The notes beneath the pieces were generated by a model. It worked only from the letters and a program-made list of their open reading frames with translations, made no database searches and had not been told where the DNA came from. DNA of 63,361 bases, filler included, from Rozella allomycis CSF55 (lineage: Eukaryota): NCBI GenBank assembly GCA_000442015.1. It is 6 parts of 6 records of this genome, joined end to end, with 100 filler letters (N's around TTAATTAATTAA, not from the genome) between each part and the next. Parts side by side here need not be neighbours in the genome. Positions count along the whole stretch, not along the records: positions 11,649 to 35,862 come from KE561009.1; 5 more parts are not named here. One strand, given 5' to 3'. The position numbers and the translations under genes were made by a program. Shown piece after piece: positions 2,893-62,310 of this stretch. How positions within the stretch are numbered: position 1 is the first letter of the stretch; every line of letters begins with the position of its first letter.

Positions 2893-4855
2893 ATGACTTT
2901 TGTTACTTATTCTATTTCGCCTTCGATTCAAAAAAATAACAGAAAGCAAACAAACTCACAGGACTCTTTAACTGCCAGCAGTTGTACTCAAATGATTAAA
3001 CATATACAGCAAACTAGATTGCTTTGTGAAAGTCTAGTGCAAACAACATCATCATGGATAGATTCTATCAATAACAATTCAATGAATATTAATAAACTTA
3101 AAGAAAAGAATTTGGAGCAAACGAAATTGATTGAGCGTATTATTGAAACTCTTCAAAATAACCCGGAAAAGGTAGAAACAGTGCACGGGTTTGAAAGGTA
3201 TTCAATAACATTTCCAATAAAAAGATCAGAGCCAAAATATGAAGAATATTCATATTTTGACAAAATTCAAATGCCTGTAGGTGTAAAAGCGCTTTATGAC
3301 TCTTGTCATGGTTTACCAATTACCCGCCGTGGAAAAATTTGACCGCTTTCGCGAGGATGGTAAGGTATCAACAGAACTTTATAGCCATCCTCAATTTTTC
3401 TTTGAAAGTTGGAAATCTAGCATGTCGATACAACAGAGAAAAACCAAACGGGAGAGGATAACATCAGATGCAAGTAAAAGTACATCAATGAGGATTTCTG
3501 CAAACATCAAAGATTTAGAAATCAAGAAATACAGCTCGACGGGAGAATCCTATTCATTGAAAATTAAACCCTCTGAACCGAGAGATAGCATACTAATGAA
3601 TAGAGAAAATAGTAGCCCCAGTAAAATACCTGATAGCAGTCAATTATTCACTGCTCAAAATGATAGCCATGAAGAAAATATGACATCAATTAAAGTTAGT
3701 AATCTAAAGACGGAAGTAAATAGTGAGAAATTCGAGGCTACTGACAAGAGAAACATTGGTGATAGTATTTCTGGTTCAAGCATTAATGTTAATTACAAAC
3801 AAAATCATTTTAAGCGAGAGAATGTTCCAGTTAATAGACAGGAAGATCAACAAGAATATCAAAATTCATTAAAAACAGATCAATTTCAAGTACCCAATGC
3901 TAAAGAATCGGAATCCATTGCAGTTGCTCCAAGAAACAAATTGACAAGCCATCAATTTGATTATAATGAAGTAGGTCATGGGCTATTAAACAACGACTTA
4001 CTACCAAATACGAAATATAGTTCTCCTGAGATTGCAAAAGAAAATAACTTGAACATTGATAATAATTTGTATATAAATACTGATGACTATAATTCCATTC
4101 AATCTTTACATAATCAGGCTCTTAATCAGTTTCCCAATGAAACAAATTCAAATGAACCTGCTTACTATGATGAATATTCTTTCATTGACCACAACCCGAA
4201 ATTCGAATCTAGAACTGAACATAATGATCAAGATTTTTATAAAAACGAAGAAGACTTCACATCTACTGTCGAGAATCATGAAAATAACCTTGTCACAGAA
4301 CCCTACGAATATAATCATGAAATAACACTAATAAATGATTACAATCATACACAACAAGTAACCGGCGTTACTTTGGAATATCAAAATGAGACCTTCAGTT
4401 ACAACAACAATGAATCACAATACGAACACGAAAATAACTACAATGATTATGGGATCCGGCAAAATGTTAATGAAACATTTCAACAAAATGCCAGCTACAA
4501 TGCATTCCAAAATCAGCCAGACGCATTTCAAGAAAAGATCAATTACGAACAACCAGAAATCCCGACAATACTTACTAATAGTCACTACTATCAAACGTCT
4601 ATTTCCGAACTTCCAAATCCATTGGTCAACGATATTCAATATTCAGAAAACATAATCGAGGAAGCAAAAAGTATCGACCCTAGAAATAAGCTTTTGGAAT
4701 CAATTCGAGGCAAAAACATTCAATTGAAGAAAGTTGAACAACCTTCTCCAAAAACTAGTGAATCTAGAAAAAATGATGTTGCCGCTATATTAATGCGAAG
4801 AGCTGCGATGGAAGCAAGCGATTCAGAAGACGGATCCGATGAAGATTGGAAATAA
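2893..4855 (+). CDS. WAVE/SCAR-family Arp2/3 nucleation-promoting factor (frameshift at ~3313-3319)
   Basis: SCAR homology domain MPVGVKALYDSC..LP....RFREDGK...LYSHPQFFFESWK; C-terminal WH2 (RNKLLESIRGKNIQLKKV), central NDVAAILMRRAAME and acidic DEDWK. Confidence 0.85.
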
Positions 4856-4938: not shown

Positions 4939-6104
4939 TTATTTGAGAAATCCGATTAATGAGAAAACACACTCGATTGAAATAAGAATAATAATGGCCC
5001 ACTCCATGTTATCAGTATGTTTTTGACGCAAATGATTTTGAAGGACCTGGACTATTTCATTTGCATAATCAAGTTTCCTATTGAGCGTCATAGTGCGAGA
5101 TTTTAAATCGAGGACCCTTGAAACCTTATTATAAAGTTCTTCCAAGTTGGGTTCACTCCAATAAACATCAGGAGTTCCCAAAAATTCAGAATGTAAATTA
5201 AGATTCGCGCGGAAGGAAAGCAATTCACCAATTTTAGCAAGCGCCTGATAACGATTAAGAGTAATTCTGTTTTTGGCTTTCAACATTTCGGGAATTTCAC
5301 GGACACTTTCAATATATTTTTCGAGTAAAATTTCAAGGGCTCCTAGCTTCACTGAATTTGATATGCCATGAGACAGCGCCAACTTATTTCTGAAGATTTC
5401 GGCGCTTTCGGCATTCGAACAGAGAACAATTGAATCTCCACTCAAACCAGATGTACTATTTGATTGATTGGATCGTTTTACCCATTATTGGAAGGCTTGT
5501 ATGTCAATTCTTCAGTTTCAATTTCAGGGTACGAATCTATCTCGTGTTCTTTGATTTCTCTGAGCAGGCGCATAGATGTGGCATCATCTACATCCCACAT
5601 GATCATGGATCCCGCCTTAAAGTAAAAAACTTCACCTTGCGTTTCCTCTTTTGTCATTGGATCAAGAAGCTTAATATGATAAATGTCATTGAAGTATTGT
5701 GGAGAAAGAATAAAGTTCCGTTGTAAATAAGGTAAGAGAGTTTCAAAATTGTATTCCAAAGCTGTGCCAAATGCTTTTACCATTTTCAACTAGTTTTTGA
5801 ATTACGTTTTGAATACTTGGTCTGTTGATTCGACAGGGTTTGGGATTCTACGCTTTTTCGGTGTTTTCGTTTTAAATGTAGGAATTGGCAATTGTTGAGA
5901 AGTAATGTCTTGTTCATCTACATCTTCTACATTCACTCCCTTATTCTTTGGCAGAGAATATAATCGAATGGGAAGTAACGTTGACTTGGTACTTAAGGAT
6001 AATATGCTTACTGCTGGTTTATATATCTTTGGAATACTAGTAAGAGAGTAGTGAGTGCGATGAAATACTCTGGGTGAGAATATACTTTGGCAAATCTTAT
6101 TCAT
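4939..6104 (-). CDS. RMND1/Rmd1-like DUF155 protein, probably mitochondrial
   Basis: GEVFYFKAGSMIMW, KLALSHGISNSVKLGALE, GTPDVYWSEPNLEELY...LDLKSR...LNRKLDYA...MEWAIIILISIE; basic/hydroxyl-rich N-terminal presequence-like region; 2 introns. Confidence 0.85.
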
Positions 6105-6260
6105 ATGTGGCTTGTTGTGCCAAAAAATTAGGCAACTGACAAATCTTATTGCATTTTNGCATTTTAATCTGCACGGAAAATCAGAGATTAACATAAAAAG
6201 GGATGCAGAGTCATGCAGTTAAAAGTAGTATGATAAAATAAAAGAAATTGTGAATAATGT

Positions 6261-9200
6261 TTATTTGTGTTTCGCTTTATCTTTTTTGCTACTTTTGCCT
6301 TTTAATTTGACAACAGATGACTGACAACCATCGATTTTGATTTCAAGATCTCCTTCATATTCACACTTGTCTTGATTTGGTGTCATTTTAATAATGAATG
6401 GTTTCAGAGAATTTGGCTCAATCTCGAAAGATTTAGCCTCCAATGAAAAAGTTGTAACATTTAAACTAGAGCCATTTTCATTAGAACTTTGATCCTCTAA
6501 ATTTTCTTTCTTTTCTTTATCCTTCTTTTCCTTTTCATTTTCTTTGCTTTTAATTTGAACATTAATAATAGAAAATGTGCCTTTTAAAAATGCATTACAA
6601 GTATTTCGAATATTAATCTGCTTTTCAACAGTGTCTGAAACTGCGACGTCACCAAAGGAAACCAAATTATTGTCGACTTCAATTTGATAAGAGCCTTGAA
6701 TAGCTGCTCCGGTTAAGTATAATCGAATATTTTCGTCTTGATTGATTTGAAGAAACAATTCATCTAAATCTCTAGTCATTGTAGAAGGGAAATATGAAAT
6801 CTTCAAAGTGAATTTAGAAAGAGGAGGAATTGTTCTATTAGCGTTGACCATTTCGAATGGACCTAAAGGATTTAATGGGACTACTCCAAGGGTTTGAGGG
6901 TCGTTTGACAAATTTTCAATGGTCAAGGATTCAATGATTCTTGTTGAACAAGGGATGACACCAAAATCTAAAACATTATTCTTTATTGGATTCTTTGAAA
7001 ATGATAATTTGAAAGAAGGATTTTGAATTTTGAACGAAACATGTACAGGAAAACAGGAGGTTTGTCTTTCACCCACTTGATCAATAAAGTCTAGATAGCA
7101 AGGGATTGTTAATTTTATATTGGAACTTGAAAGATTTTCTGTATTATTTTCAACTTTGAGATTTTCTAGTTGCTTATCACCTCCATTGTCACTCTCTTTG
7201 CGCAAACTAACTGATTGTCTCCGCTCCATTACAGAAGACCTTCGATGAGACTTTGTGTGCCTTTTTAAGTTTAAATCTGGAATTGCATCTTCATTTTGAA
7301 GTGGCTTTTGAGCCAACTCCATATTAGGCATTTCAATGTCGTGGCCTTCATACAGCTTTAATGGTTGTTCGTTTAGTAGAAGAGACGCAGAAATATAAAC
7401 CGCCTTTGTTTGTCCTTTGAAAAGTTTCCCGTTCGTCGGAAAAATTGTAATTTTTATATTTTGGGAGTCAGGTGAAGCAAATACAAAATCACATTCATCA
7501 GAAAATGTATTTTGCATTAATATAGTGTCTTCTTTTAATACATGATGAGAAATAATCCCGAAATTCAGGTTTTTATTGAATTTGATTGGAGAATCCACTA
7601 TTGTCGCCTTCAACGGTATTTTAACATTTGTTTCAGATTTTAATTTTAATGAAATTTTAGATTGATCTAAATCCGTATCCTTCGTTTCATCTTTGTTTAA
7701 TATCAAATTTAATGAAATGAATCCCGTAAATTTTCCTTCTTTTTTCTCTTTAAAATAAAATGGAATTTCGATTGATGATTTTGAATTTATTTTTGCATTT
7801 TCTTTAATCAAGGGAGACCAAACTTGAGATGGAAAAGATTTTAATGAAATTTCAAAATCAAGGAGCGAAGGATTGTATAATTTTAATAAAGATTTGACAT
7901 TTTCTCTTGAATCTAAAACCCCAAAGTCTATTATTTTGGGCTCATGATTGATTTTAATTTCTGTAGTGCATCCACATAGATTTATAATCATTTCCGCGGG
8001 GTAGCAATTGGGAAACAAAATTTTAGCCATAAAATCAAATTTAGAGTTCAAATTATCCACTTTATGTTTTTCAAATCTTACTTTGTGCTTTACTTTAACT
8101 GCTAATGAACCCTTTGGTTGGATCATCCCATTGAACGGAAAAAACTCAAAATGTGAAATTGCATCATTTTTTAAAGGAAGAATATTAAAGTTTACCATTT
8201 TCAAACTATTATTAATTATAACAAATTCTCTGGTAACATCTTGTTTCGAATGACATATACCAAAGTCTAATTTGGAGTTTTCAATCGTGACATCAAACGG
8301 CACGCAATCGCCACAAATTTCAATTTCGTTTCCTTCAAAGTTATTGACCACGGAACTAATTAATATTTTATCTTTAAACTGGCCCAATTCTTTTGCTGCC
8401 AACGAGAATTGAAAATCGTTCAAGGGAGTAATTAGAGTTTTATTTGTTTCAGGAATAGTAAATTTCAAGCTCTTCATCAATACGTTGATGTCAAATCCTT
8501 CGAGTTTGTCCAAATCAACGTCCTTCAAATCTTTAATACAAAACTCTTTAATTTTATCTAAATAAACTTCCCCGACATTAATTTGCTTTGGAAAATCAAA
8601 ACTGAACATCTTTGGTTTTACTGAAATTAAAAATACATGCTGTTGAAATTCAGTCGCCAAATTTGCTTTATTAGAAAAATATTCTGCCATTAAAATGATT
8701 CTGGTCGAAATTTCTTCTTCTTCTGAATTTAAAAAAGTCAATGAAATTTTTGTGCTAAAGCCAGGATGTAAAGTCATTGGAAAATTGCATTCAATGTTAA
8801 GTAAATCAGAAACCTCTAGCGGAACTCTAATTGCTTTTAAAACTATTGATTCTTTTGATGAATTTGTTATTGAAATCATTTTATTCACTCTTGTTTCCTT
8901 TTCATATTCGTTTATTATCAATTGGCGCGGCATAAATGTTAATGTTTCATTCTCGTTTTTATTCTTATTGTTTTCAATCCTGCAATACATTAATGGGGCC
9001 TATTTATTTTTTGTAACTCTTTTACTGGGCCTAACACTGGAGCGGTTTTGATTTTGGTTAAAACATCTTTATCGTCATATTTCTCTTCTGCATCACCATC
9101 TCCGATTTCTTTTTTAATATTTTTATCTTCTTTAACAATTTTAGCTTCTTTAACATTTTTATCTTCGTTAACAATTTTAGCGTCTTTAACAGTTTTGTCT

Positions 9201-10314
9201 TCATTAAAATGTTTTTCTGTTTCAAACTTTAATTTCACTTTGCTTTCTATTCCGAAAACTCTGGTTGCTATTTCATTCAATTTTTCTTCTCTCTGTTCTT
9301 TTTCTCTTCTCATTTCTCTTTCTTTTTTTCTTCTCGACTTGTTTATATTAATAAAATCGTCCAAATTCAACTTTGAAACTTCTTGTTTATTGAATTCGTC
9401 AATTAACCTTTGTTCAAATTCTTTTTCCTTTTCTAAACTCTCTTTAAGTTTTTTAGACATCTTCGCTTTCGCTTTATTCATAATCAATTCCACTTTTAAT
9501 TTGTTTTCCCTTCTCTTGTCAATCTCTTTGATTCTCTCACGTTTCATTAACTCGAGTTTTTCATGTCTCTTTGATACCAACTAGTATTTAATTACCATTT
9601 TTAAATATTTATTCGCTCTTTCCTCTGCTTCCATTCTCTTCAAATTGTTGTCCTTTTCTTTCTTCTTCTCTACCTCGTTTGGCTCTTCTTCATACCCTTT
9701 TGTCAACTCTCTGGCCTTTTTTCCTCTTCTCACCTTTTGTACACTTCTAGTCTCCTCTTGTTTTGATATATCAAACGTTTTCTTTGTTCTTTTTTCCTTC
9801 CCAATCAAAATATCTATATTTGCTAATTCTTTTCTCTTCACAGATATGGCATTTTCTGTTTTGTGAATAATACTTTCAAGGGCTTTTATCTCCATAATCT
9901 TTGACTCTTTATCCATTTCATTATCCGTACTTAGCGTTGCCTTAATTTCTCTAATATTTTCCTTTATTAATCAACTAATTAATGTACCTGCAAATTTTGA
10001 AGCTCCATTTCACTTATTCGTATCTTTTTACAAACCTCATCTTTTTGGAATTCCAGCCCTGAAAAAGTGTGCATAATTTTATCATATTGTTTCTCTGTCT
10101 TGAAGTCGTTAGGGATTATATCCGGCAGAAATATATCAGAGCCATCAGAGTCGGCGTCACTATCCTCTTGATCAGTGACATTCTTATGTTGGTAAGTTTT
10201 ATTTTCATGTATTCCCTTTAGCGATTTGAAATNGTAAGTTTTAATTTCATGTATTCTCTTTAGCGATTTGAAATGTGATTGATCTGATTGTAAAGCTTGT
10301 TCTAAAGCAATCAT
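6261..10314 (-). CDS. CFAP74: CFAP74-like cilia/flagella protein (N-terminal coiled coil plus repeated ASH/Ig-like domains)
   Basis: Charged coiled-coil exons followed by 909 aa with repeated (L/I)DFG...ITN/IEN Ig-like units and PLNPLGPFEMVNA; ORFs joined by short introns such as gtaaaagagttacaaaaaataaatag near 9000-9025; start uncertain. Confidence 0.65.
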
Positions 10315-11548: not shown

Positions 11549-11648
11549 NNNNNNNNNNNNNNNNNNNNNNNNNNNNNNNNNNNNNNNNNNNNTTAATTAA
11601 TTAANNNNNNNNNNNNNNNNNNNNNNNNNNNNNNNNNNNNNNNNNNNN
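11549..11648. other. scaffold gap with TTAATTAATTAA stop linker (same at 35863-35962, 50262-50361, 56082-56181, 62211-62310)
   Basis: Identical N44-TTAATTAATTAA-N44 spacer five times; artificial. Confidence 0.97.
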
Positions 11649-21299: not shown

Positions 21300-21632
21300 T
21301 ATGTGGCTTGACGATTTATTAAGTTTTATAGATTCAATATGTCCAAAAATAGATTATTTCTAATTTTAAACTGAGAGTGTTCAAAGTAATAGTAATTAGT
21401 TTGGACCATTAAACAAATGTAAAGCCAGAGGAATATTTCTAAGTTGGTTCAATGGATTTAATCATGCATATATCATATTACATTATTACATTAAAGACAA
21501 TTTTTTATTTAAATCATGTAATGATTCCTTCTTTTCCTTCTTGAGTTTACAGCNGACCGTTAAACTAGAATGGATTTAATGATTTTAATCATGCATATAT
21601 CATAGTACATAATTACATTAAAAACAATTTAT

Positions 21633-23661
21633 TTAAATCATGTAATGATTCCTTCTTTTCCTTCTTGAGTTTACAGCAAAAGTTCCAACACCAGCTGCAG
21701 CTCCAACGGTACCTAAAGAGATTAAAGCGATGTTAAGAGGAGTAAAAAATGAAGGATCTTCTTTATGTTCAGGCTCTTCTTTATCGTTATTTATTTTTTC
21801 AATGACTTTAGAATTTTTGTTTAATTTGCTTTTCAATTCCAGGATTTGTTTTTCGAGAACTGATTTCCCTTGACTTTTTGAAATTTCCAGTTCAGGGTTT
21901 GAGCTTACCGGATCAGGTTTTGAGCTTAAATGTTTCACAGACCTGGATTTGCGGCATTTGGTTTTTCTTCTTGTAGTTTTAGATTTCTTTTTTGTTTTGC
22001 ATTTCGATGATGGTACAGTAGACTTCTTTTCGGTTCTTTCAATTCTGGCATTTAGATCGAATGGACTTGGTAATTCTTCGGGTTCTTTGTTGCTATTGAC
22101 TGGAGTTGTAGTAGGTTCAACTTTCTTAATTGTTTTTTGTACGTCTTTGGCAACTACAATAGGGGCAGTTAGGGGGTTTAAAACTGTCTGTGATGATATC
22201 TCGGCTTTCTTAGACTCTTGATTTGAAGTTTTTTCCGCTGTTTTGGAACATGGTGTAACATTCACTTTTTTAATTTCTTTTGTCTGTTTCGATGGATTAC
22301 TAGTCGATGGCTTGGTCAATCTTGTGGCTTGGACATTTTTGATGACTCTCTTTGGTTTTGGTTCTTCCTTTTTAAAGATACTTGGTACAGCGGATAAAAT
22401 ACTTTTTCCTATTTGTTCTTTTGCATTCGCAGCCACATCGGACACATAAGATGAAGCAGCAGCCACTGAATTTTGCACAAAGTCACCTGCAGCTTTTTGT
22501 CCAGAATTATTAGATGATTGGGAAGATGGCACAGTGACTACAATGGAAGGAACAGCTGGACCGCTACTCTGCACTTTCCCAACACTAATTAAACCTCGCG
22601 CTCTACTCCACAAACTTGGCTTAGCGTCGTCTATTATCAATAAACCAAAAATCTTACCAGAATTTACGCATGGAGTAACTGTAGAATCATCCTCACTATC
22701 CGTATCATCACNGGAGTAACTGTAGGCTCGTCATCATCCACACTATCTGCATCATCACAATCTTCATCATCTTCATCTTCGTCATCATCATCATCATTCG
22801 TTGGTTCACTTGTCAACTTCATAGCGCTAGTTGTTTCCACTACTTTAAGCGCAGAGTCCACTCGTTGACTAAACGATTTTTTTATTCTTGCAATCCAGCC
22901 TTCTATAATCCATAATCATTTGTTTTACCATTTTGTTGATTAGGTTTTCCACTCGTCTTATGATCTTGTTCAACATGTGCATGTGTGGTCTGGGCGGATG
23001 CAGTGGCAAAATTTCCATCCTCTGGCGCACTTTCTTGACCATCTCCATTATCCACTTGTTGATGTGGCTCTCCCTGATCATTACTTGGATCAATTGGTGC
23101 ACTTTGACCGATTCTTAATAAATCTTGACTAGTACTTGGCAATGACCATGGGCTCGCAGTTGTAGCTTTTGAATCAGCCATTTCAGGCGTAGGTGTCACA
23201 GATCTTGACCCACCAATTGATGACACCGGCCCAGCTACTGTTTCGAAGTCAAGAAAATTATTCAAATTTGCAAATTTAGCCTTGACAGCATCGAGGGATT
23301 TTCCTTTCTCAGCAACCACAAAATATATCGGCTGAATCATTGAAGTATGAAAACTAAATTTAAAGTTTTCCTCGACATCTTCGCCAGTCACTTTAGCAAG
23401 CAAGGTTCCTATTTCAGTTTTGACATCAGAAGTAACAAATTTTATCCAGTCAGTTTTCAGGAAATATAAATCTACATTATTATCGATAAGCTCGAAAGAA
23501 GTTCTTTCTTTACAGATGTAATGGATTAAACGAAGCCCATCACGCAAGTCTTCAGACTCTATCGTCATCATTTTTCGAATAGTGCTTATCTTAAATATCT
23601 CTCGGCAGTAAATAAACGACCCTGAAATTAAAAAGAAGAGTGATAAGACAAAAATTTTCAT
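21633..23661 (-). CDS. orphan type I membrane protein sharing its C-terminal anchor with the neighbour
   Basis: MKIFVLSLFFLISGS signal; poly-D tract; S/T/K/P-rich stalk; FFTPLNIALISLGTVGAAAGV TM followed by RRKRR; exon structure near 22640-22930 uncertain. Confidence 0.65.
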
Positions 23662-31758: not shown

Positions 31759-32933
31759 ATGTCTAAATTTACAGAAGCAATTTGCTACAAAAGTTTTGGC
31801 AGCGTTTTAAATTCACGTAAGTTGATACCAATTATATTCTAGTGTACCTTGAACCAAATTGCAGTGTCTATCACCATTCTTATAAAAATGGCAAAGATTG
31901 GGTTAGAATTGGATTCCGAGCCACACCCATAAACCCTTCAGATATTAATCAGATAGAAGGGGTTTATCCAGTCAAGCCCAACACATTTCCTGCGGTTGGT
32001 GGTAATGAAGGAGTAGCCCAAGTGCTGGAGATCGGACAACAAGTGAAAGATATCAAGGTTGGTGATTTTGTTATACCGAGACTGTCAGGCTTTGGTAAAT
32101 ACATTGATGTATAATGTTCAAGGGACATGGAGAAGGGAGACTATCTGTGATCCCGCTTGTTTGTTTAGGGTCCACAAATCGATTGGTTTGATTAATGCCG
32201 CCACGGTATCAGTGAATTTGTGCTCTGCATATCGAATGCTTCATGACTACATTTCATTAAGCCAAGGTAGTTTTTATTTTACGGTTAGACAAGACGATGT
32301 AGTGATTCAAAATGCAGCGAATAGTGGTGTAGGAAAAGCTATAATACAAATCTGCAAACACAAGAAGATTAAAAATATCAACGTTATAAGGAAAAGGTAA
32401 GTTTGCTTTTTTGATGTGACAGGGAAACCACAGAGGAAAGCAACGCTTTAATGAATCATTTGAAACAACTTGGGAGTTCCATGACTGTTTTTGAAGATGA
32501 TTTGATTAATAATGTCAATAAAGTTCAAGAACAAATCATGGAACATTTTAAAGTCTTGCCAATTCTCGGTTTGAATGCTGTGGGTGGTGAAAATTCTACA
32601 AACATTTTCAGACTTTTGAATAAGAATGGCGCTATGGTTACTTATGGCGCCATGTCCAAAAAACCAATAAAACTGCCTACTGGTCCATTCATTTTCGACA
32701 ATAAGAAGTGTTTTGGCTTTTGGATGAGTCAATGGTACTCTGACTCTCAAAACAATTCCAAAAGAAGTGAAATGATGAATGATATTTGTTCAATGATTGA
32801 AAAGAGGGCGCTTTCTACCCTCGATTACAAGCTTTATTCATACAAGGATTATCAAAGGGCGTTAGCAGAGAAATCGAAAGCAATTTTGATTTGGAATGAA
32901 NGAGAAATCCAAGGCTATATTGATTTGGAATGA
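31759..32933 (+). CDS. MECR: mitochondrial enoyl-ACP reductase (Etr1/MECR)
   Basis: PINPSDINQIEGVYP, AVGGNEGV, GTWR, VIQNAANSGVG, LNAVGG, MVTYGAMSK; 4 introns. Confidence 0.95.
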
Positions 32934-32968
32934 AGAAGATTTGGAAAAAATGAATAAATAATTTATTT

Positions 32969-34672
32969 TTAGTCTAAATTGAATATTTCTTCGTCTATAA
33001 ACATGTAATTATTCGATAGAGCGGGTAAATTTAGCGCCTGCACGCTTGTCTTCTTTGACGGTCCATTCTTTGTTAGTCCATTTATCCAATGTTTGTGTAT
33101 TGGTCTATGGCCATAGTAGCATCTAGCCAACTGCAAAATGGTTTTATACAAACTTGACGCATAAGGTTTACTGGAATTGACGAGGGCAACGAGGATATCA
33201 ATGAATGCAACTGCGCATTTGTCTGATGGATACAACTTGCAAGCTCTCTCCATGCTTAGCATTTCATTAAAATAAAACAGCGCGTTATCTAGATCATTAG
33301 ACAGCAGATACGCTCTACACAATTTCACGTAAATCCTGCAGTCCTTGCCAGTCTTGAAATGTTCCATCATATCAAAAGTTTGCTTGGCCATTTCAGCATT
33401 AAAAGTGTCTCTATTAGAAAAGTGCGACATTATGGGCTGGAAGAACGACTCTGTGATTTGCATTCCATTTTCAAAATGCAATTTATGTAGAAACTCAAAC
33501 ATTTCGCCATAATTCTTTGCTTTTAGTAATGAAGAGACAAACTGTGCCGAAATTATTGGATCGTGGCTGTCGAATTCTTCAAAATAGGATTTATAGATCT
33601 GTCTAGCGATTTCTAAATTCTGTGTTCCAATGTTGGCAACTTGCATCAGATTTCTATAAGTTTGTTCTGAAGGATAAATTTCGTTTGACTTGTCTTCTTT
33701 GAGCATTGAAAAATATCGGACTGCCTTGCTGAAATCTTTACTTTCAATGCAAGACTCTATTAGCGCATCGTAAATGTATATATTTCTTGGAATGTTCTTT
33801 TTAACCATTTCATTAAAGTATTTATTAAGAATGTGTTTTTTGGATGGAATTTTAGAAAGCAATCTAATCAGCCCTTCAAACGTCGTTGTTGATTCTAGTT
33901 CTCTCTGTACAATTTCATTCCATAAATTCTCCCATTGTCGGTCAAACGGTCTTAGTGTTATCCGCTTATCTTCTGGATCGTGTATAGGCCTACAACACAG
34001 GAGCAGCGCCTTGTACATTAGCGGCGACGGTGTGCCGTACTTGTTCTCGAACTGAGCCTTGTATCCCACCGCCAGCGCGACCCTATCCGGCATAATGGCT
34101 GATGACAGCCCCACAATAGCCCTCTCATATACCGCCCTGCCAACAACAACACCGTGTCCTTGCATCAGCTCGATCAAATCCTTTATATCATGCAGCGAGA
34201 AATCATCTTCGAAAATCGAATTGGAAATAGAAATCAGAGATACGACTTCTTTTAGGATAGCCCCACTGTAAAACGACTTGTTGCCTTTCATCTTGCGGAT
34301 CAGCGACGGCCATTGCCTGATCAAATACACTGGTGATCCTTCTTTTGGCATTCCCTTTTTCCTGATTGTTTTGGACAATGACCTGAGAAACTTTACATAT
34401 GATCCCAGAATTTCGACGTATAGGGATTCTGAAGTGTTTGGATCGGCAGCGTCTACGAGTCTAGGAAACATTGGAATTAGTTTCATGTATTCTATATTCA
34501 GAGTATCGTCTTGTCGTATTTTCTGCATGGTGGCAATGACGTCTTTTAGAATTAGTGATTTTTTGGATGATAGGGGCAATTGGCGTGCTAATCGGACTAT
34601 TTTCTCGACATTGGAGTGTTCTGTGAGAGCTAGAGATGACGAAAATCTTTGGAGTGTGTTGAATGTAAACAT
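32969..34672 (-). CDS. pentatricopeptide-repeat (PPR) protein, probably mitochondrial
   Basis: PRNIYIYDALIESCIESKDFSKAVRYFSMLKE, PSEQTYRNLM and IYVKLCRAYL..NDLDNALFYFNEM PPR-like motifs; presequence-like start. Confidence 0.8.
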   Translation of the reverse strand: MFTFNTLQRFSSSLALTEHSNVEKIVRLARQLPLSSKKSLILKDVIATMQKIRQDDTLNIEYMKLIPMFPRLVDAADPNTSESLYVEILGSYVKFLRSLSKTIRKKGMPKEGSPVYLIRQWPSLIRKMKGNKSFYSGAILKEVVSLISISNSIFEDDFSLHDIKDLIELMQGHGVVVGRAVYERAIVGLSSAIMPDRVALAVGYKAQFENKYGTPSPLMYKALLLCCRPIHDPEDKRITLRPFDRQWENLWNEIVQRELESTTTFEGLIRLLSKIPSKKHILNKYFNEMVKKNIPRNIYIYDALIESCIESKDFSKAVRYFSMLKEDKSNEIYPSEQTYRNLMQVANIGTQNLEIARQIYKSYFEEFDSHDPIISAQFVSSLLKAKNYGEMFEFLHKLHFENGMQITESFFQPIMSHFSNRDTFNAEMAKQTFDMMEHFKTGKDCRIYVKLCRAYLLSNDLDNALFYFNEMLSMERACKLYPSDKCAVAFIDILVALVNSSKPYASSLYKTILQLARCYYGHRPIHKHWINGLTKNGPSKKTSVQALNLPALSNNYMFIDEEIFNLD

Positions 34673-34806
34673 TTAATGATTTCCAACGCCACTTGCCGTT
34701 TTGGGTATGCAACAGAAACAAGAAAAATATCTAAGTATTCTTTATTATTTAGGGCATTTTAATTAAAGAATGAATTGATGAATTGCATATTTGGAATGCA
34801 TCAAAT

Positions 34807-35862
34807 TTATTTACTTTTTGTACAATGGGTGTGCCTGATTTTATTGGCTTCAACGATGCAATCTACAGAGTCTATTGTTTTTAAGCAAATATGGCAAAAA
34901 GTGTTTTGATTAATGTTTACATATGAAGCATGATACCTTTTGGAGTAATATTGTAATGAGAGTTGATTTAAACGTGAAGAATAAAGGTTTGATAGCATTT
35001 GTTGTTGACGTTGCTTTGACTGTTGAACTTGAACAATGTTTAGAATGAAAGATTTCAGTTGCAGAAGATTAGAATTTTCAGATAAATTTTGGATGATGAG
35101 AATTGGATCGATGTAGAGGATGTATTTTGAGAGGAATGATAAAAGATTATCTTGTGAACAAATTCTATAAAATTTGAGTATTTTGATTACTGTTGAATAT
35201 TGTTGAAAAAGTGATTTAGCAAATTGGGAACGTTTGAATTATTTGTGTTGATTAAATGATCTATTAAGAATTGAAACGTTTCTAAGTCTTTGTAAATGTT
35301 TAAAATTGTTGATAGACTTTGTTTGAGGTTGCCTTTCAAATTATCAAAAATATTTGACTTGTTACTTGAAACTGAAGGATTGAATTTTCAAAGTCAAATT
35401 CAATTGAATCAACAAAGTCTATTGAATAATCAAAGCAAACAGAAACAAGTTTGTACCTTTAAGTTTTAAAGAAAGGAAAGTTCATTACCTTTAATTTAAA
35501 GAGAAGTGAATTATATTACCTTTAACATGAAATAACTAAGCCCATTACCTTTAATGTAAAGAGAAGTGAAATATATTACCTTTAACATGAAATAACTAAG
35601 ATCATTACCTTGAATTACAATTATTTTCATGGGACTTTAAATAATCTAAAAAAGAAGGTTTGGGATTGTCCATTTCGATATATTCTTGTTCTTGAATTAT
35701 TCTAATCAAAATCAATTTACCAGGGTCAATCATACAATCTAATTTAGAAAATTCCAATAAAATGAAAAATAATTTCTTGAGAATAAAAAGATCTTTTTCA
35801 TTTAATTTCTTAAATTTTTTTGAATCAGATTTTGAATCTAGAAAGAATTCTAAAACTTTTAA
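34807..35862 (-). CDS. 3' part of Vps39/Vam6/TGFBRAP1-family protein
   Basis: C-terminal YVNINQNTFCHICLKTI......HTHC zinc region preceded by helical repeats (VIRIIQEQEY, RYKLV); 5' end in gap. Confidence 0.6.
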
Positions 35863-35962
35863 NNNNNNNNNNNNNNNNNNNNNNNNNNNNNNNNNNNNNN
35901 NNNNNNTTAATTAATTAANNNNNNNNNNNNNNNNNNNNNNNNNNNNNNNNNNNNNNNNNNNN

Positions 35963-37639
35963 TTATTTTTGAAATTTCAATACTTTTTTTAGATTCAATA
36001 ATTTTTTCAATTTCATTTTCAAATTCTTTTAATTCTTTTTCAAAATCAAAATTCATGAAATTTAAAACTGATTTTTCTAAACTTTTTTTATATTCATTTA
36101 AAGATTCATTTTTAGCTAAATTTGAACTTGAAAGAAATCCTTCAGATTTTAAATTTGTTGTAAATTTCAAATTAAATAAATTCAAATATTTTTTAATTAA
36201 ATGTTTCTGCTGAATCAAAAATAAACTTGAAATATTCTCGTTAATCTTTTCTTCCAACTCTAACAACTTCTTTCTATAAATCTCTTCCTTATAGCGATGT
36301 GCACTCGATTTGAATTCTTCTATACATTTATTCTTATCAATTTCAAACTCTTCTTTAAAGTCTTCAATTATTTCTTCTTCTAAAATATTTCTCTTTGCAT
36401 GACACACCCTGGTAAATATTGACAATGAATTCTATTTTTAGATTCAGAAAATTACAAAATACATTCATGATTTCATCACATCGATATTGCGCTAACAATT
36501 CTTGCTGCGTTGGCAAATCCAAATCTTTATTACTCACAATTTTTTCCTTTTATTATTCACATCATTCATTACCCAAATCGCATCTGCATACTTTGAAAAC
36601 CCATCACTTGGGATATCATTCTTATATTCTTTATTCATCAAATACTTTGCATCTTGCTTGTTAAAAAACCTTTATAATTCCCACTCAACATTCAATACCA
36701 TTGTTTCAAGTTTAATACATCCTCATTAAATTTGTTCGCTTGCAGTCTCTTGTGAGCCAATCCAACAAACTTTAAATCAAACAAATCTGTAATCTCAGCT
36801 TCTCTAAACATTTCAGGCTAATTAATTCAACCCTGAAATCTTACTTTACTCAACCCTCTCCAAATTCTATCTAAATCACTCCTCAACGTATTCTCCAAAT
36901 TAATCAACGGAGTACTCCCTTCAAAATCACGTATCACAAAAAGTAACAATTTCTTTGCCATTCTTTCCCTCTCAAACACAAATCTTACCCAGGCTGCTGG
37001 AACAATTGCAAATGCACTTCAAAAACAGTCTTCAATAGTCCCATGCTAGCTCCATTATACAGTCCCACCGAATGCTCCCATAGATTAACAATCAAAATTT
37101 GAGAAACCGAAAGCGAAAACAATGCACTCTTTCGTTCAAAATCCTTTTAAATTTTAACAATTATATTCACTTGGTTTTCTCCTCGCTCACGACCGTCTGT
37201 CCCCTCCACATCCATAATCAACACCGATCTATCTTCATCCGCAGGCGACATCCAGATCCCTATCTCACTCCACAACTCTCAATACCTATCCCAACCAAAA
37301 ATTCACTCGTACCTTTAGTCGTCTGCTGGCGCCTCGTATCATCCATCTCCTGAAACGCAGTCCCAAACAATCGATTCAACAATGTACCTGCTCACCCACA
37401 CACCCAAAATTTACCTATTAAAACCACCCCCAATACGTACCTATATATTTTATAAACACTTTAATCACTTTTTCCAGTACTCTGCGCCCCAAATACCGCA
37501 ACAACAGTATAGTCAAACCCAATATCACTTATCTGCCACTTTTCCCTCACATAGCTCTCAAGATTTTGGCTATTTTTATGAAAATCGCTGGTTACTTGAA
37601 TTTTTGCTCATCGTCAATCAACTGAATTTGATTTGTCAT
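35963..37639 (-). CDS. SEY1: Sey1/RHD3 ER-fusion GTPase (3' end in gap)
   Basis: After splicing: [73 protein letters not shown]. Confidence 0.95.
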
Positions 37640-37737
37640 GAAAATGCAAGGGTTTCTACACAATTATTTCCGCGAGTTATATATAGTAAATGTCAAGTGA
37701 AATATAAAGCAGAATTAAATGGAATTATGGAAATAAT

Positions 37738-39366
37738 TTATTTTTTAACGTCTTCCTCTTCATTTTCTCTGTTCTCATCTTGCCTTTCCAGAACTAATAC
37801 GCCACATCTGGATGTCAAAATGTTGAAATCACTGTCCTTGACTGCAATGCCCACCAAAGGCTCCTTCAATAATCTGCAAAACTTTTGTTTAACAACTATA
37901 AACACTTACATAAACAGGCTCAACAATCGGAATCAGATCTAACTGCATTGGCTGGATGATATCCTCTATCTGTCCAAAGCCCCGCTCAGAAGCCTCTTCA
38001 TTCACCAATGATCTCCGTTTCTCTCTCTTGCCTAGCATACTTACAGTGGAATGCTACTAGATCGTAGACGAAACAGTTACCGATCGAGGGCGTCGCAAAT
38101 TCTCTCTTGAAAACTCCCAAAAACATGCAAACCCGTCGTGTCCAACACTGACAAATCTGTAAAGGTTCTGTCCACAGGTTGCGGGATCAAAGGCAACTTG
38201 AGAGACAAATGATTTGTGGCCTTGGCAGCGCGCTACAAATGTGCGCTCTTGGATATCAAGAATCGTAATACAATCGTCTTCACCGGCAAGCTATCATTAC
38301 ATCGTGCTTGAATTACTAGAATATATTTGCCATCAAAACTCCATGTTGCTGACAAGTATCCGCCAAAGAAGCTCTTCATACTGAAACAGAGTTTATGTGT
38401 GGAATGCTCAATGATTCTAACTATGCCGCTCTTTGAAACGATTGCTAAATGCTCGTAATCTGGCGAGAAAAATAATTCTAATGTTCAAATAAATAGATCT
38501 TTACTTTGCGACTCACTGGAACTGAATTGATAGATTGTTTCTACAAAACCACCAACAGGTAGTTGTCTCACTTGGAACCTGGAAATGTTTTCTCAAAATG
38601 TTACATTGATTTCGGAACTCGTGTTTCTGATATCGCCACCAGATTTTGCAATGATCTACAATTTAAGAACGCGACTATTCCGTCATTGAAGGCAGCTGCA
38701 AAACGTTCTTCAGAAGCTGGTAGCCATCTCACAGAAGACACGGGTGATTTAGATAAATGATGCTTTAAAACTTATAAAAAATGTTTTTACCGATTTATTG
38801 TGACGTACAAAATAGTTACTCAATGGACAATAAACTAATATTTCGCCATTAGACAAACCAATTAAAATATCCAAAGATGAAGCATTTTTTGTGGTCAAAT
38901 TTAAATCATGGCATGTCGGCGAGCATTTCGCGAAATTGATCATGACCAAGGGATCAGAGCTAGGGAGGCAAATATCTACCATCAAAAACGATTTGCTAGC
39001 ATGAATAAGAAATCCGCTGCCTTTGTAGCTCCCAGATTTTAAATCATCTTTAAACTGAGAGTTCATGGTAAACTTGTCAATTAGAGATGATGGACGAAAC
39101 AATCCTTCAACGCCGTAAAGAGTTGTGTATGCCTGTTTCTTTTGAAACGAGAATATGGAGTTAGAGTTTTCATCCTGTATCACGAATTCGAGTAATGTAG
39201 CATAATCCTTTTCGTCGTTTATTGTACTCACCTGCTTTGGGGTTGATACACTATACTCGGATATTGCTGAGAGCATGTATGAATGCAGTGGATAGTTAAA
39301 CTGGATTTGGGTATTGTATTCCACTGTCTGGTTATTCCAATCTACCGCAAAAAGTGTACTGGCCAT
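37738..39366 (-). CDS. WDR20/DMWD/CreC-type WD40 protein (DUB cofactor)
   Basis: PTCHDLN...LDILIGLSNGEI, VSSVRWLP, SFFGGYLSATWSFDGKYI, GEDD, RCQGHKSFVSQVAFDP, RFVSVGHDG. Confidence 0.85.
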
Positions 39367-44191: not shown

Positions 44192-46225
44192 TTATTTATC
44201 TTTTTTCTCCTCTTTCTCATTTGTCTTTGTTTTTTCCAAGAAGTGTTCGATGATAATGTCTTCTTGCTTTCTAGCTGCCATGTAAGTAATGTCATTTTTA
44301 AGAAAAGTTTTTATTCTTCTAACAGTTGTCATCAACTGTGCTTGTGCCAATGTTGACCTTACAGCCTTTCCGTTCAAGCCAAGTAAAGTAGAATGACCGA
44401 GTACTTTACGCATTTCTATTGAGACCAAGTCTGTAAAAGCAATACCCATAACTGAAATATCCTGCTTCTCGATTTTAACTTGATTTGAAGAACTTGATGA
44501 CGATTCTTTGCAATCAAAGCTTCTATAAAGCATGCAATTACCACATCTTTCAACAGGTGTAATGTATCGTCGATTATGATCACCATAATAACGATAGGAA
44601 CTAACCATCAACGATTTAGATTTAACACTTGACGTTGTGTCACCATTAGTAACAGCCAAAGAACAGCTTTGATCTTCCGCACAGTTTCCTAAAGGATGTT
44701 TAACACCTTTTTTTTGTTGCACTTCGTGCCCAAAGTTTTGCTGAACTATTTTTGGCAACAAAGTATCTTTCTGCAAAAATTTGCTTTCGCTGACAAAAAA
44801 GGTTTCGTCTGAGTTACATTCTAAAATCAATGCATGCATGTCTGTGTTTGTAAAAAGGCTGTCGCGGGCTTTAAAACTCATTCCCATATATAATCTATCG
44901 TCATTTATATCATCATTGAAAGAGACTGAAAGAACATATTGGTCTAAAGGTTTTTTTACTTGTTTCAACCATTTGTTGACACATTGTGCAAAACGAGGAA
45001 GTTTTTCATCAATATATCGGAAAAAGTTTATAAAATCTTCACTTCTTTCGCGAAAAAGAATATTTTCCTTGGAAAAGATGTTAGAATAGAAACTGTCAAT
45101 TACTTTTTCGCTAGAGAATTGTAAATTTCCTTGATTCAAAATAGTGTTCTGGGTTCCGTAGCTTCTCAAAAGGTCACAAAAGCTATTTTCATTTAGCACA
45201 GATGAACTGAATAAAATATCATTGAACAACTTATCAGCTACCAAGGGAGTAATAGAAAACGGTGATAATGTAAATGAATAACTTGTCGTGTGGGCCCAAA
45301 TTTGGGGATTTCCGCCGTTCAGTTCTTTAACCAATNCCCAAATTTTGGGATTTCCGCCATTCAGTTCTTTAACCAATTCTAAATACTCATTTAATTCAAC
45401 AAAAGGATTATTATGGTCATAATGAATATCAACCACGTACACTTTACCATCATTCTTACCTTTTATCAATGGAACTTGAATCACCGGAATTCTGAATGCT
45501 GTGCCATCTTTTCTTGGTGCTGAAACGGTAAGTTTCTTAGGATCAGAGAAAGGAAGATATTCGTTAAATTCTTCACTTTCACTAGGGCCGATAACTAAAA
45601 TCGGCGGTGCTATTTCACTAGATCCTTCAAGCTGATCAACAAGGGAATGATAAACTATTTCAATACTAGACATTCTATTTTTAACGGACTTGCAATGAAC
45701 CATATCTTTGATTAGCTCGGAATTAATAGTAAATCCATTCCTCAATACGCACTCCCCGCGGATATTCTGAACTATGGTGTTTTTGTTATTCACATCATCT
45801 ACAATTTTTTTTGCCAACTTTTTGAACTCCTCAAAAGTTCCTTTTTCCATCTTTTTACCACTTTTGTTCTTTATGTTTTGAAAAGTTTCTCCATATGACA
45901 TATAATTATTCTCAATTACCCAGTTCATGCATCTTTCGTTCGCCGCCTTTCGTTTCTCATTATCTATACCCGAACACGGGTTTATAAAAGATCCCATTTT
46001 GTCCTTTAAAATGTCTGCGACTTCAGAAATGTTATCCTGCTCAAATGCGACTTCCTTTAAGAGAAATTTGGGTTCAGTATTAAAAACAGGAAGATCAAGA
46101 TTTCGAATGGTTCGCAAGCTCTCTTCACTGACAGACGAAAGTTTGAACGGTTGCGTTGATCTAATTTCAACTGGCAAGGAGGATACAGTCAAGATGCCAC
46201 TGAGAACATAAAACACGTGCTTCAT
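44192..46225 (-). CDS. secreted protein with C-terminal zinc-dependent deaminase-like motif (CAE...CxxC)
   Basis: Signal peptide MKHVFYVLSGILTVSS; HPLGNCAED at ~44672-44698 and RCGNC at ~44534-44548. Confidence 0.65.
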   Translation of the reverse strand: MKHVFYVLSGILTVSSLPVEIRSTQPFKLSSVSEESLRTIRNLDLPVFNTEPKFLLKEVAFEQDNISEVADILKDKMGSFINPCSGIDNEKRKAANERCMNWVIENNYMSYGETFQNIKNKSGKKMEKGTFEEFKKLAKKIVDDVNNKNTIVQNIRGECVLRNGFTINSELIKDMVHCKSVKNRMSSIEIVYHSLVDQLEGSSEIAPPILVIGPSESEEFNEYLPFSDPKKLTVSAPRKDGTAFRIPVIQVPLIKGKNDGKVYVVDIHYDHNNPFVELNEYLELVKELNGGNPKIWXLVKELNGGNPQIWAHTTSYSFTLSPFSITPLVADKLFNDILFSSSVLNENSFCDLLRSYGTQNTILNQGNLQFSSEKVIDSFYSNIFSKENILFRERSEDFINFFRYIDEKLPRFAQCVNKWLKQVKKPLDQYVLSVSFNDDINDDRLYMGMSFKARDSLFTNTDMHALILECNSDETFFVSESKFLQKDTLLPKIVQQNFGHEVQQKKGVKHPLGNCAEDQSCSLAVTNGDTTSSVKSKSLMVSSYRYYGDHNRRYITPVERCGNCMLYRSFDCKESSSSSSNQVKIEKQDISVMGIAFTDLVSIEMRKVLGHSTLLGLNGKAVRSTLAQAQLMTTVRRIKTFLKNDITYMAARKQEDIIIEHFLEKTKTNEKEEKKDK

Positions 46226-50125: not shown

Positions 50126-50568
50126 GTAAATAAAATTGAGATTTCGCATTTTAATTTTGGTTCAGATATATTTTTAGTTCGCAGTTATTGTGATGTATAT
50201 TATTCTCGAATCTCTCACTTTCTGAATTCTTGGTATAGAGATAAAAGACTCAAAGTTTGCANNNNNNNNNNNNNNNNNNNNNNNNNNNNNNNNNNNNNNN
50301 NNNNNTTAATTAATTAANNNNNNNNNNNNNNNNNNNNNNNNNNNNNNNNNNNNNNNNNNNNACTTACTTGTTCTATTACAGTTTTAACTCGAAAATAAAT
50401 TCCATTTTAAGTGGTAAAAAAAAAAGTTAATAACCCGCAGGCCGCACAAAGCAGACATTAAGTACAAACTCAGTTGATACTTCGTAATCTTTATTGTATT
50501 ACTAATTGTTCGTCTATCTATTATATTCCATGACTATTTAGAATGTGACTTGATCAAATAATTTATAG

Positions 50569-52581
50569 GTTGTTATAGAAACTGGACTTGATGAATAACG
50601 AACAATCCATTAACTTCAACGTACCAGCAAAGTTCTTAAAGGCATCTCAGGCCAGAATGCAAAAGATGAAACAGAATAGTTTAGAGAGAGATAAGTCTAT
50701 GGTTCCTCCCAAATTGGAACCATTACCAAAGGCTCAAGAAGGACCAAAAGGCCCCAATATGTCCATACCCTCTACTTCAAATATATCANTGTCCATACCC
50801 TCTACTTTAAATATATCAGATAAGGTCTTTGAAAGTAATCCAAAAAGTAAGCCTGTGACCGCCCCATCAAAAACTGCCTTGGAAATTGATCGCATAAGAA
50901 AGAAACGTGAGTTGAGACGCCAGCAACAACAAGAGATTAAGGACATGAACAAACTGATAGATCCGGAAACAAAGGATATTAAAAAATACAAGTCAATCAT
51001 CGCTGCTTTTGTCGCCGGCATACCAGCTGGTGTATCCAATTCAAAGAAATCGTTATCAGAAATCAGCCAAGAAGCAGCAATCAGAGTGTGCGTACGAAAG
51101 AGGCCTATTAATGAAAAAGGTATCTTTTTTTAATGAATTACAAAGAAAGCAGTTTGTCCAATTTTGACGTTGTTACGTGCAGATCTAATGCAAGCCGCAA
51201 CGCGCTGATGTATGTGCACGAACCCAAAGTCAAGTTTGACATGTCAAAAGACATGGAACATCATCAATTTTGCTTTGATAATGTCTTTGATGAAACCAGC
51301 ACAAATGAGGCAGTCTATTCTTCCACTTTAAAGACAATTCTGCCACAGCTACTTAACCAAGGCAGAATAAGCTTTTTCGCGTATGGTCAAACTAGTTCAG
51401 GTACACTGACAAGCCTATTCATATGTAGGAAAAACTCACACAGTCTTCGGTAATCAATCGAATCCCGGTGTTTATCACTATGCATGCAAAGACATTTTCA
51501 AATTGATTAAGAATGACAAATCATTATTTGTGACAGTATGTTTTTATGAGATCTACGGCGGAAGAATTTATGATCTATTTCAAAACAAGGCCCGGTTGCA
51601 GTTGTTAGAAGATGGAAAGGGTGATATAAAGATAATGGGTTTGCAAGAAATACAAGTTGGTAGTTATGAAGACATGATAAGACTTATTGACTATGGTTTT
51701 TCAACTCGTACTACAGCATCTACCTCTGCAAATGATGAATCATCACGAAGTCACGCAATATTGCAGATTAGTATTCGTCAGGGCGATGGGTCCATAGTTA
51801 AAGGAAAGTTCTCTTTGATTGACCTTGCCGGATCTGAAAGAGCTTCAGATGTCAATCACACTGACCGGCAACGCAGAATCGAGGGCGCCGAGATCAATAA
51901 AAGTTTGCTCGCGTTGAAGGAATGTATAAGAGCCTTAAACAAGAGACAGAGTGGTGCCCATATTCCTTTTAGGGCCAGTAAGCTAACTCAGGTTTTACGC
52001 GACTGCTTTATTGGAAACAATTCACTTACAGTAATTCAATGTCAAATCCTATATAGGTCATGATAGCAGCGGTAAGTCCAGCCTCCGATTCCTGTGATCA
52101 CACTCTGAATACACTTCGTTACGCTGATAGGGTAAAAGAATTGAAGCCGGAGAAGAATTCCAAACTAAAAGTAAATACAAAGAGGTCGATATCATGCTCC
52201 AATGTAAAAGAAACTAATATAAGTTAATAGATGCTTCCAAGTCCGCTTATTTCACCCGAAGATGAAGATATTGAAAAACTCCATGAAAGCTTGAATACTC
52301 CCTTTGAACTTTTAAATCTTCATAAAACTGCAAATGCCATAGTTTATGAGCACGAAAATTTGACGCGAAAGCACGATGAGGCACTCAAAGAACAGACTTT
52401 AATATCACAAACAGAAAAAGAGCTATTGGATGAAGTTGACATTGACATATACGTTGATGGATTAGAGAAATGCATTAATGATAAAATGGAGATTCTTGGT
52501 GATTTACTAAGAAATGTACATCAATTGAGACAAGATTTATCACACGTTGATACAAATCCAGATATTAATTTGGAAGATTAG
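50569..52581 (+). CDS. kinesin-13 family motor (KIF2/KIF24-like), 5' end uncertain
   Basis: [87 protein letters not shown]. Confidence 0.95.
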
Positions 52582-55823: not shown

Positions 55824-56654
55824 GAGTTTAATCCACTGTGGCTGATATATAAATTTAAAAATAGAAAGATTTAAAGAAAATAAAATATTTAATCGCCTTT
55901 ATTATTAAGTATATCTATTCATTTGGTGTCAAAAGAAAGTAAGCAAGTACATGGCCGGTGATTGGCAGTTGAAGATTGCTTGAAAATGCAGGGCCATTGT
56001 CGGGTGTGTATAGATTTAGCCTAATTAATTGCGATGAAATGGATATTTTTGCGGAATCAATATTTAAAACAGTCTTTGATGNNNNNNNNNNNNNNNNNNN
56101 NNNNNNNNNNNNNNNNNNNNNNNNNTTAATTAATTAANNNNNNNNNNNNNNNNNNNNNNNNNNNNNNNNNNNNNNNNNNNNGTCGCAGCTGTTGCTGATT
56201 CGTTTAAAGTAAAGTAAAACATGCTTTACTTCTTATGATTGTTTTTAGTAAGCCTGGCTTGACTGATACTGATAATAGATATCCAACGCAATAACTAGTT
56301 GTTAGGCCTCTTCCTCGCATTCATCACTCTCAGAGTCATTATCATATAATTATAAATCTTCAGCAAGCTCATAATCAAAATTATTACTGTCGCGTAAAGA
56401 ATCTGTTCATTCGGTGGTTCTGTTTTGGTTCTGTTAGTGTAGTTTTCGAAATACCTGTTGCCATTCGGGAAGCATGGAATTGGATGAGTACTTAGAATTT
56501 TTTTGGCTCTAGTTTTCAGTTTTTTTGCCCAAGCATTGATAGGTAACCCGTAAAAACGATTTCAAAATTACCTAGAAAATTTACGAAATGGGGTGAACCT
56601 GATGTTCAATACAAACGAATTAGATAATTTAGTGGACAGTCGAAGTCCTCTTTA

Positions 56655-62180: not shown

Positions 62181-62310
62181 ATATTCACAATAAATTTCTT
62201 CACACAAAACNNNNNNNNNNNNNNNNNNNNNNNNNNNNNNNNNNNNNNNNNNNNTTAATTAATTAANNNNNNNNNNNNNNNNNNNNNNNNNNNNNNNNNN
62301 NNNNNNNNNN

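Follow-up and report, generated by a model that had tools for sequence, protein, structure and literature searches.

Five mini-introns in direct succession: a probable intron array within a VPS39-like gene

How can a reading frame that is otherwise interrupted by very short introns carry a gap of 152 nt, and how might such a gap be removed? The question is raised by a VPS39-like gene on the minus strand of the window, the whole 63,361-nt stretch of DNA analysed here (63 kb), in which the initial annotation had read the gap as five introns placed back to back. The window joins six contigs by 100-nt linkers (11549-11648, 35863-35962, 50262-50361, 56082-56181 and 62211-62310), each made of 44 N, a 12-base spacer with stops in all frames and a further 44 N. 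A gene that reaches such a join is truncated, and contigs on the two sides of a linker need not be neighbours in the genome. The VPS39-like gene and a Sey1/RHD3-like gene considered below lie on successive contigs. The genetic code is of the ciliate type, with TAA and TAG as sense codons and TGA as the sole stop, because seven long open reading frames (5,294 codons) contain 28 TAA and 13 TAG codons and never TGA. The window also holds a gene for a CFAP74-like ciliary protein with Ig-like and ASH domains (5482-8999, minus strand).

The gap spans 35608-35457 on the minus strand and divides into five abutting units, listed here with their scores on the intron model described below. A slash marks a splice junction throughout, and X1, X2, X6 and X7 are sequencing runs whose DNA contigs were compared with the window.

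35580-35608, minus strand: unit 1, type A, 29 nt, GTAAT..TTAAAG, with an in-frame TGA on read-through; score 12.0 bits
35549-35579, minus strand: unit 2, type B, 31 nt, reduced by 2 nt in run X7; score 12.2 bits
35520-35548, minus strand: unit 3, copy of type A, 29 nt, identical to unit 1 at 27 of 29 bases; score 10.8 bits
35489-35519, minus strand: unit 4, copy of type B, 31 nt, identical to unit 2 at 29 of 31 bases; score 13.5 bits
35457-35488, minus strand: unit 5, type C, 32 nt, shortened to 28 nt in X1 and X7; score 11.7 bits

The coordinates, boundaries and lengths first given for these units match the sequence exactly, and the proposed tandem duplication of an intron pair is borne out by the identities of units 1 and 3 and of units 2 and 4 together with the repeat structure reported by TRF (period 60 nt, 2.2 copies, 91% matches). 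Every unit starts with GTAAT and ends with TTAAAG. Unit 5 represents a third type that is closer to type B; the interiors of types A and B agree in only about half of their columns, and 11 end bases are identical across A, B and C. Acceptor and donor abut at four inner AG/GT junctions, all of them TTAAAG/GTAAT, and complete GT..AG units meet directly at each, in agreement with the claim that no exon lies between them. AGGTA stands at both ends of the array because the upstream exon ends in AG and the downstream exon begins with GTAC. A candidate sixth unit (35456-35419, 38 nt) was rejected, as the frame then runs into TGA at once. We read the 152 nt as a non-coding tandem array of five complete mini-introns at a single intron position of the VPS39-like gene.

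The gene model around the array comprises the following features.

35609-35862, minus strand: upstream exon of the VPS39-like gene, truncated by the contig end at 35862; ends in AG in codon phase 2; coding score +0.177 per codon
35359-35456, minus strand: downstream exon, beginning with GTAC; coding score +0.125 per codon, against -0.104 in the alternative frame
35333-35358, minus strand: following intron of 26 nt, whose GTC donor is unusual; in the other frame its place would be taken by a 33-nt GTAAC intron at 35365-35333
35165-35190, minus strand: ordinary intron of the VPS39-like gene, 26 nt; the alignment to the relative P0003 crosses its junction
34804-35164, minus strand: last exon, VPS39 C-terminal region with a CxxC..HxC zinc finger and a TGA stop

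The array is located about 250 nt from the end of its contig (11649-35862), which cuts the gene, and the N-terminal part of the gene lies beyond that end. With the last exon as query, four relatives were found in a library of 1.84 billion proteins (among them P0001, E 6.8e-07, and P0003, E 8.6e-05). The zf-Vps39_C domain is carried by P0001, P0002 and P0003, and Vps39_1 also by P0001 and P0003; the zinc-finger cysteines and histidine of the last exon align with those of the relatives. Searched against Pfam at E <= 0.1, the exons of the window itself gave no Vps39 match; in the PDB the last exon returned only weak, unrelated sequence matches, and none of the 183 candidates from a homologous-protein search with the last exon and longer proteins scored. 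The VPS39-like identity assigned at the outset is supported through the relatives of the last exon and finds no counterpart in Pfam matches to the exons themselves. The join NSR/YKL across the array is the best-scoring prediction by reading frame and coding score, and a screen of coding flanks chose the phase 2 that produces it, but the alignments of the VPS39 relatives end before the array and the join falls outside the aligned region.

Read-through into the array meets TGA at the third codon of unit 1, a further point in favour of the NSR/YKL join, and 24 of the 31 combinations of retained units meet TGA within the stretch read. Five combinations are in frame and free of stops, and 2,213 stop-free splice paths cross the region, all with negative path scores; the reading frame alone therefore does not force full removal. 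Elsewhere in the gene, run X7 has a 1-nt insertion at 34987 in the last exon, which shifts the frame unless compensated, and A-run insertions at 35168-35176, inside the 26-nt intron 35165-35190. Directly downstream of the gene lies an open reading frame of 665 codons with weak PPR-type repeats (32855-34849, minus strand); a search for loci related to it produced 64 pattern matches from metagenome contigs and a further 27 from genome contigs, and no locus among them was confirmed.

The introns of the window provide the standard against which the units can be measured. The census relied on our own rough dynamic-programming gene finder applied to the 63-kb window, which missed low-scoring exons, including most of those of the VPS39-like and Sey1-like genes, and which fused neighbouring genes when long introns were permitted; coding potential was scored with a 3-periodic Markov model, a codon-usage score used earlier having been too weak. 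The single introns called with confidence number 33; all are GTA..AG, their lengths run from 26 to 31 nt, and 15 of them measure 26 nt. Units of 29-32 nt are therefore in the upper part of the local range, and the description of them as introns of ordinary size holds. Among the donor pentamers of the reference introns GTAAT is the most frequent (9 of 33), and AAAG ranks second among their acceptor ends (8 of 33). The AG before and GT after the array form an unusual context, since only one of the 33 single introns has it. The census confirmed no single intron longer than 31 nt, which is weak evidence that long simple introns are lacking, because a rough census of 63 kb missed low-scoring exons. 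Three introns longer than 45 nt were established in the window and all three parse into units, two of them verified by homology and the focal one by frame and coding score.

Both the quality of the units and their arrangement depart from chance. We built an intron model of position and composition from the 33 reference introns and compared it with 2,095 decoys: the array units reach 10.8-13.5 bits, against a leave-one-out median of 10.6 for true introns and a 95th percentile of 9.9 for decoys, and rank at the 58th-91st percentile among true introns. The window was also simulated 100 times with an order-2 Markov model, and the simulations were searched for chains of GTA..AG units of 24-34 nt; chains of at least three units occurred with a mean of 0.03 (maximum 1) and chains of at least four not at all, and one chain, of five units, is observed; for chains of at least two units the simulated mean was 4.27 and nine are observed. 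Composition-matched shuffles of the interior of the 152 nt parse into such units once in 200,000, and with the duplicate pair removed (units 1, 2 and 5, 92 nt) in 8 of 200,000.

Several other candidates in the window were rejected. The chain at 51092-51145 is partly kinesin coding sequence and the chain at 3172-3231 has an open coding frame, and both were put down to chance; candidates of 43-44 nt at 21371-21608 lie within a duplicated 3' end or an intergenic stretch. No further ungapped match with up to 7 mismatches to any of eight units was detected in the 63-kb window. An introner-type mobile element was likewise rejected, with no similar copies at unrelated intron positions within the window, and Rfam gave no matches within it.

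The other two long introns are both in the Sey1/RHD3-like gene.

37388-37468, minus strand: second composite intron, 81 nt (28+26+27); the flanking exons align to Sey1 (5ca8_A) residues 48-71 and 73-96
37260-37312, minus strand: third composite intron, 53 nt (27+26); its neighbouring exons correspond to positions 10-33 and 35-67 of the RHD3_GTPase profile

Residue 72 of 5ca8_A corresponds to the codon split by the 81-nt intron, and from the homology of the flanking exons to Sey1 and RHD3_GTPase it follows that neither gap carries residues; removal of the two arrays restores the conserved protein frame. Their units are G/T-rich and mutually unlike (at most 12-20 identities in 27-33 aligned columns), and all three of their inner AG/GT junctions are intact. 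Shuffles parse in 0.65% of cases for the 81-nt intron (1,298 of 200,000) and in 8.3% for the 53-nt intron (16,533 of 200,000), so the latter is weak on its own. The other five introns placed in this gene measure 26-27 nt. The region 36000-38000 shows a strong strand asymmetry, with a GC skew of -0.43 on the plus strand, so that the 5' part of the Sey1-like gene and its introns are G-rich on the coding strand; the coding model, trained elsewhere in the window, scored this 5' part poorly.

Comparison with the other runs shows that the array differs between strains by whole units, and that the variation is of a non-coding type. One X7 contig aligns in one piece over 32954-35599, covering units 5 to 2 and reaching into unit 1. 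Both X1 and X7 lack 4 nt of unit 5, and X7 also lacks 2 nt of unit 2, through deletions of which X1 has neither. All four indels fall within unit interiors and leave the affected units at 28-29 nt; X2 spans the indel sites without change. In X6, whose flanks are about 5% diverged, three 29-nt type-A units are followed by unit 5 (29+29+29+32, 119 nt in total), and type B is missing altogether. Within the window the array contains no N, and its two 60-nt copies differ at four positions, all of which avoid the unit ends (p ~0.16 by chance).

We propose that the array originated by in-register tandem duplication of one intron. Slippage or unequal exchange would have been favoured by the AGGTA at both ends and later by the 11-nt junction TTAAAG/GTAAT, which is repeated within the array; one duplication step, that of the 60-nt pair, appears to be visible still. 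For removal, the spliceosome would pair the nearest sites and excise the units singly, each excision recreating an AG/GT junction that would become the next splice site, in iterative splicing across zero-length exons. Any order of excision would work on paper, and adjacent units would not be processable at the same moment. Nearest-site pairing seems the most likely course because each unit has a strong donor and a strong acceptor at canonical spacing, and, judged from the sequence, stepwise removal unit by unit, as the initial annotation had proposed, would be the most natural mechanism, with a probability of roughly 0.6. The two Sey1-like introns have the same architecture, which suggests that introns here lengthen in whole-intron steps.

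The 152 nt could instead be removed in one step, from the outer donor at 35608 to the outer acceptor at 35457, with the inner AG/GT sites as inert by-products of duplication. Duplication alone accounts for units 3 and 4, and in-register gain and loss of whole units is expected from slippage at the 11-nt junction regardless of whether the inner sites are used, so that copy changes in unit register call for no selection; Paramecium annotations also include some introns longer than 40 nt (720 of 94,711 in one annotation, v2; PMC5485702). However, three diverged types keep all 11 end bases identical although the interiors of A and B are only about half alike, every unit scores as a good intron, and in the Sey1-like arrays the inner junctions are intact despite the dissimilarity of the units. 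Where strong sites are separated by 26-32 nt, moreover, intron definition as described for Paramecium (PMC8997360) would be expected to pair each with its nearest partner. Splicing is poorer for longer introns in P. bursaria, where retention rises with intron length (bioRxiv 10.1101/2024.08.09.607295), and the Paramecium data fit a length penalty. We regard removal in one step as unlikely.

A second alternative keeps the array and changes the gene model around it: the first donor would be the GTAAT at 35618, 10 nt upstream (giving a first unit of 39 nt), followed by the other downstream frame and the 33-nt GTAAC intron at 35365-35333, with units 2-5 unchanged. In favour of this model, its 33-nt candidate reaches 14.4 bits and the 26-nt GTC intron 10.0, the other frame is open as well, and the GTC donor that is needed after the downstream exon under the NSR/YKL model occurs in none of the 33 reference introns. 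Non-GTA donors do occur in the window, as shown by two GTG donors of units or introns in the Sey1-like gene (37468 and 37170). The alternative is, however, disfavoured by the exon score of -0.104 per codon against +0.125 in the NSR/YKL frame and by the screen of coding flanks that picks phase 2, and its 39-nt unit and 33-nt intron both fall outside the range of 26-31 nt. It therefore seems to us a rather improbable model, and the NSR/YKL join is retained as the predicted one.

It is quite improbable that part of the array is coding or alternatively retained, for example that only unit 1, with its TGA, is always removed and that 20-41 residues are contributed in frame by units 2-5 (123 nt) or by unit pairs (60 or 63 nt). 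The five open retention combinations and the 2,213 stop-free paths would permit this, but the units are T-rich with intron-type ends and intron-like scores, and no splice path has a positive score. The strains argue in the same direction: the 4-nt deletion in unit 5 of X1, which lacks the deletions in unit 2 of X7, would break the frame if units 2-5 were coding, and X6 has no type-B units at all.

The array is not an assembly artefact. A false two-copy duplication from unmerged contig overlaps could be suggested by the window's 23 single N's, 12 or more of which lie at the joint of a two-copy tandem repeat (by TRF coordinates and comparison of flanks), and by the 34 nt that the X1 and X2 contigs skip at one such joint (32867-32902). 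For the array this is extremely improbable given a sequence free of N with copies that differ at four positions, an independent X7 contig that crosses units 5 to 2 into unit 1, an X2 contig unchanged at the indel sites and a real A-to-A junction in the different arrangement of X6. Examples of such N's are those at 10233, 13537, 32901, 39612, 42142, 45336, 50789, 57447, 59010, 60481, 61475 and 62900; the two-copy repeats there are 27-280 nt long and look like unmerged contig overlaps, that is, false duplications, and the one near 45336 duplicates residues within an open reading frame. A duplication of about 124 nt at 21370-21680 (minus strand), which contains the 3' end of a gene for a membrane-anchored protein and downstream sequence and has an N at 21554, may be another unmerged overlap.

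If the units of the VPS39-like array are removed singly, as we favour, this would be the most minimal natural form of recursive splicing at zero-length exons, with segments of 26-32 nt, in a setting where intron definition and a narrow length window dominate. Exact duplication of an intron at AGGTA microhomology would be neutral for the protein, and intron length would become quantised and polymorphic. A broader version of this reading, which we hold tentatively and at somewhat less than even odds, is that the spliceosome has a hard ceiling of about 32 nt and that introns can grow only by in-register duplication of whole introns, giving "intron minisatellites" that are removed by repeated minimal splicing across zero-length exons and differ within populations in the number and type of their units (A-B-A-B-C here, A-A-A-C in the relative). 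If that ceiling is true, genome-wide intron lengths should peak near 27, 54, 81 nt and so on, and this would be the first case of recursive splicing as the rule for every long intron, acting on the smallest introns and not on the largest; for tiny-intron spliceosomes the array offers a direct test of a hard length limit. Such sites would be misread by annotation pipelines that set a maximum intron length or assume single introns (the caps given in PMC5485702 are 100 nt for TrUC and 45 nt for an earlier filter).

A literature search covering main texts and abstracts found no report of abutting mini-intron arrays in ciliates. Metagenome contigs were scanned for pairs of TTAAAGGTAAT junctions separated by 18-22 nt. 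The scan returned 45 loci, most of them on inspection minisatellites, coding 33-nt repeats or organelle-type repeats, and gave no analogue of the array and no evidence for or against one; the two inspected further, L020 and L007, had no clear coding context. On the minus strand of L020, at about 2563-2684, a run of three 32-nt GTAAT..TTAAAG units, all identical, precedes a 26-nt GT..AG unit; this could be a minisatellite, or else an array of like kind belonging to a different organism.

The units themselves resemble the tiny introns of Paramecium, which also have GTA..AG ends, an AT- or T-rich interior, very narrow lengths, splicing by intron definition and stops on retention (PMC5485702, PMC8997360, PMC5014332). 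In contrast to the array, those introns are treated as single units in these papers, which regard lengths above 40 nt either as rare or as noise of annotation. No terms for chained introns occur in the main texts, and "tandem" is used in that of PMC8997360 only for gene pairs. With regard to origin, tandem genomic duplication that copies splice signals is known to yield an extra functional intron (the AGGT model; PMC3265369, PMC4974935), and the array likewise contains a direct tandem repeat carrying splice signals, with a 60-nt period. In that model, however, a duplicated exon segment becomes the new intron, whereas here an existing intron appears to have been copied exactly in register; the model does not fit, because there is no exon-derived sequence between or within the copies.

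The stwintrons of fungi resemble the array in that consecutive splicing reactions take place at one position in organisms with short introns (PMC8469720, PMC9024468). There, the inner intron interrupts a splice signal of the outer one, so that the arrangement is nested and the order of removal forced. The units described here abut, each with an intact GTAAT and TTAAAG and none dependent on another; since nothing is nested, the array is not a stwintron.

Recursive splicing, described in long introns of Drosophila and in long human genes, shares with the array the juxtaposed AG/GT within an intron, the zero-length exon and the principle that one removal leaves the next site. In the known cases very long introns are subdivided at a single site or at a few widely spaced ones, whereas here the whole intron is 152 nt and every segment is a minimal-size intron. 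The ratchet-point consensus is reported as (Y)nNCAG/GTAAGT (PMC5126111), and the junction TTAAAG/GTAAT has no YAG and departs from this Drosophila-type consensus. The segments of the array, unlike those of known recursive introns, are tandem copies whose number varies between strains. By analogy, then, the array would work like recursive splicing at zero-length exons, with a stepwise removal that we infer from its structure.
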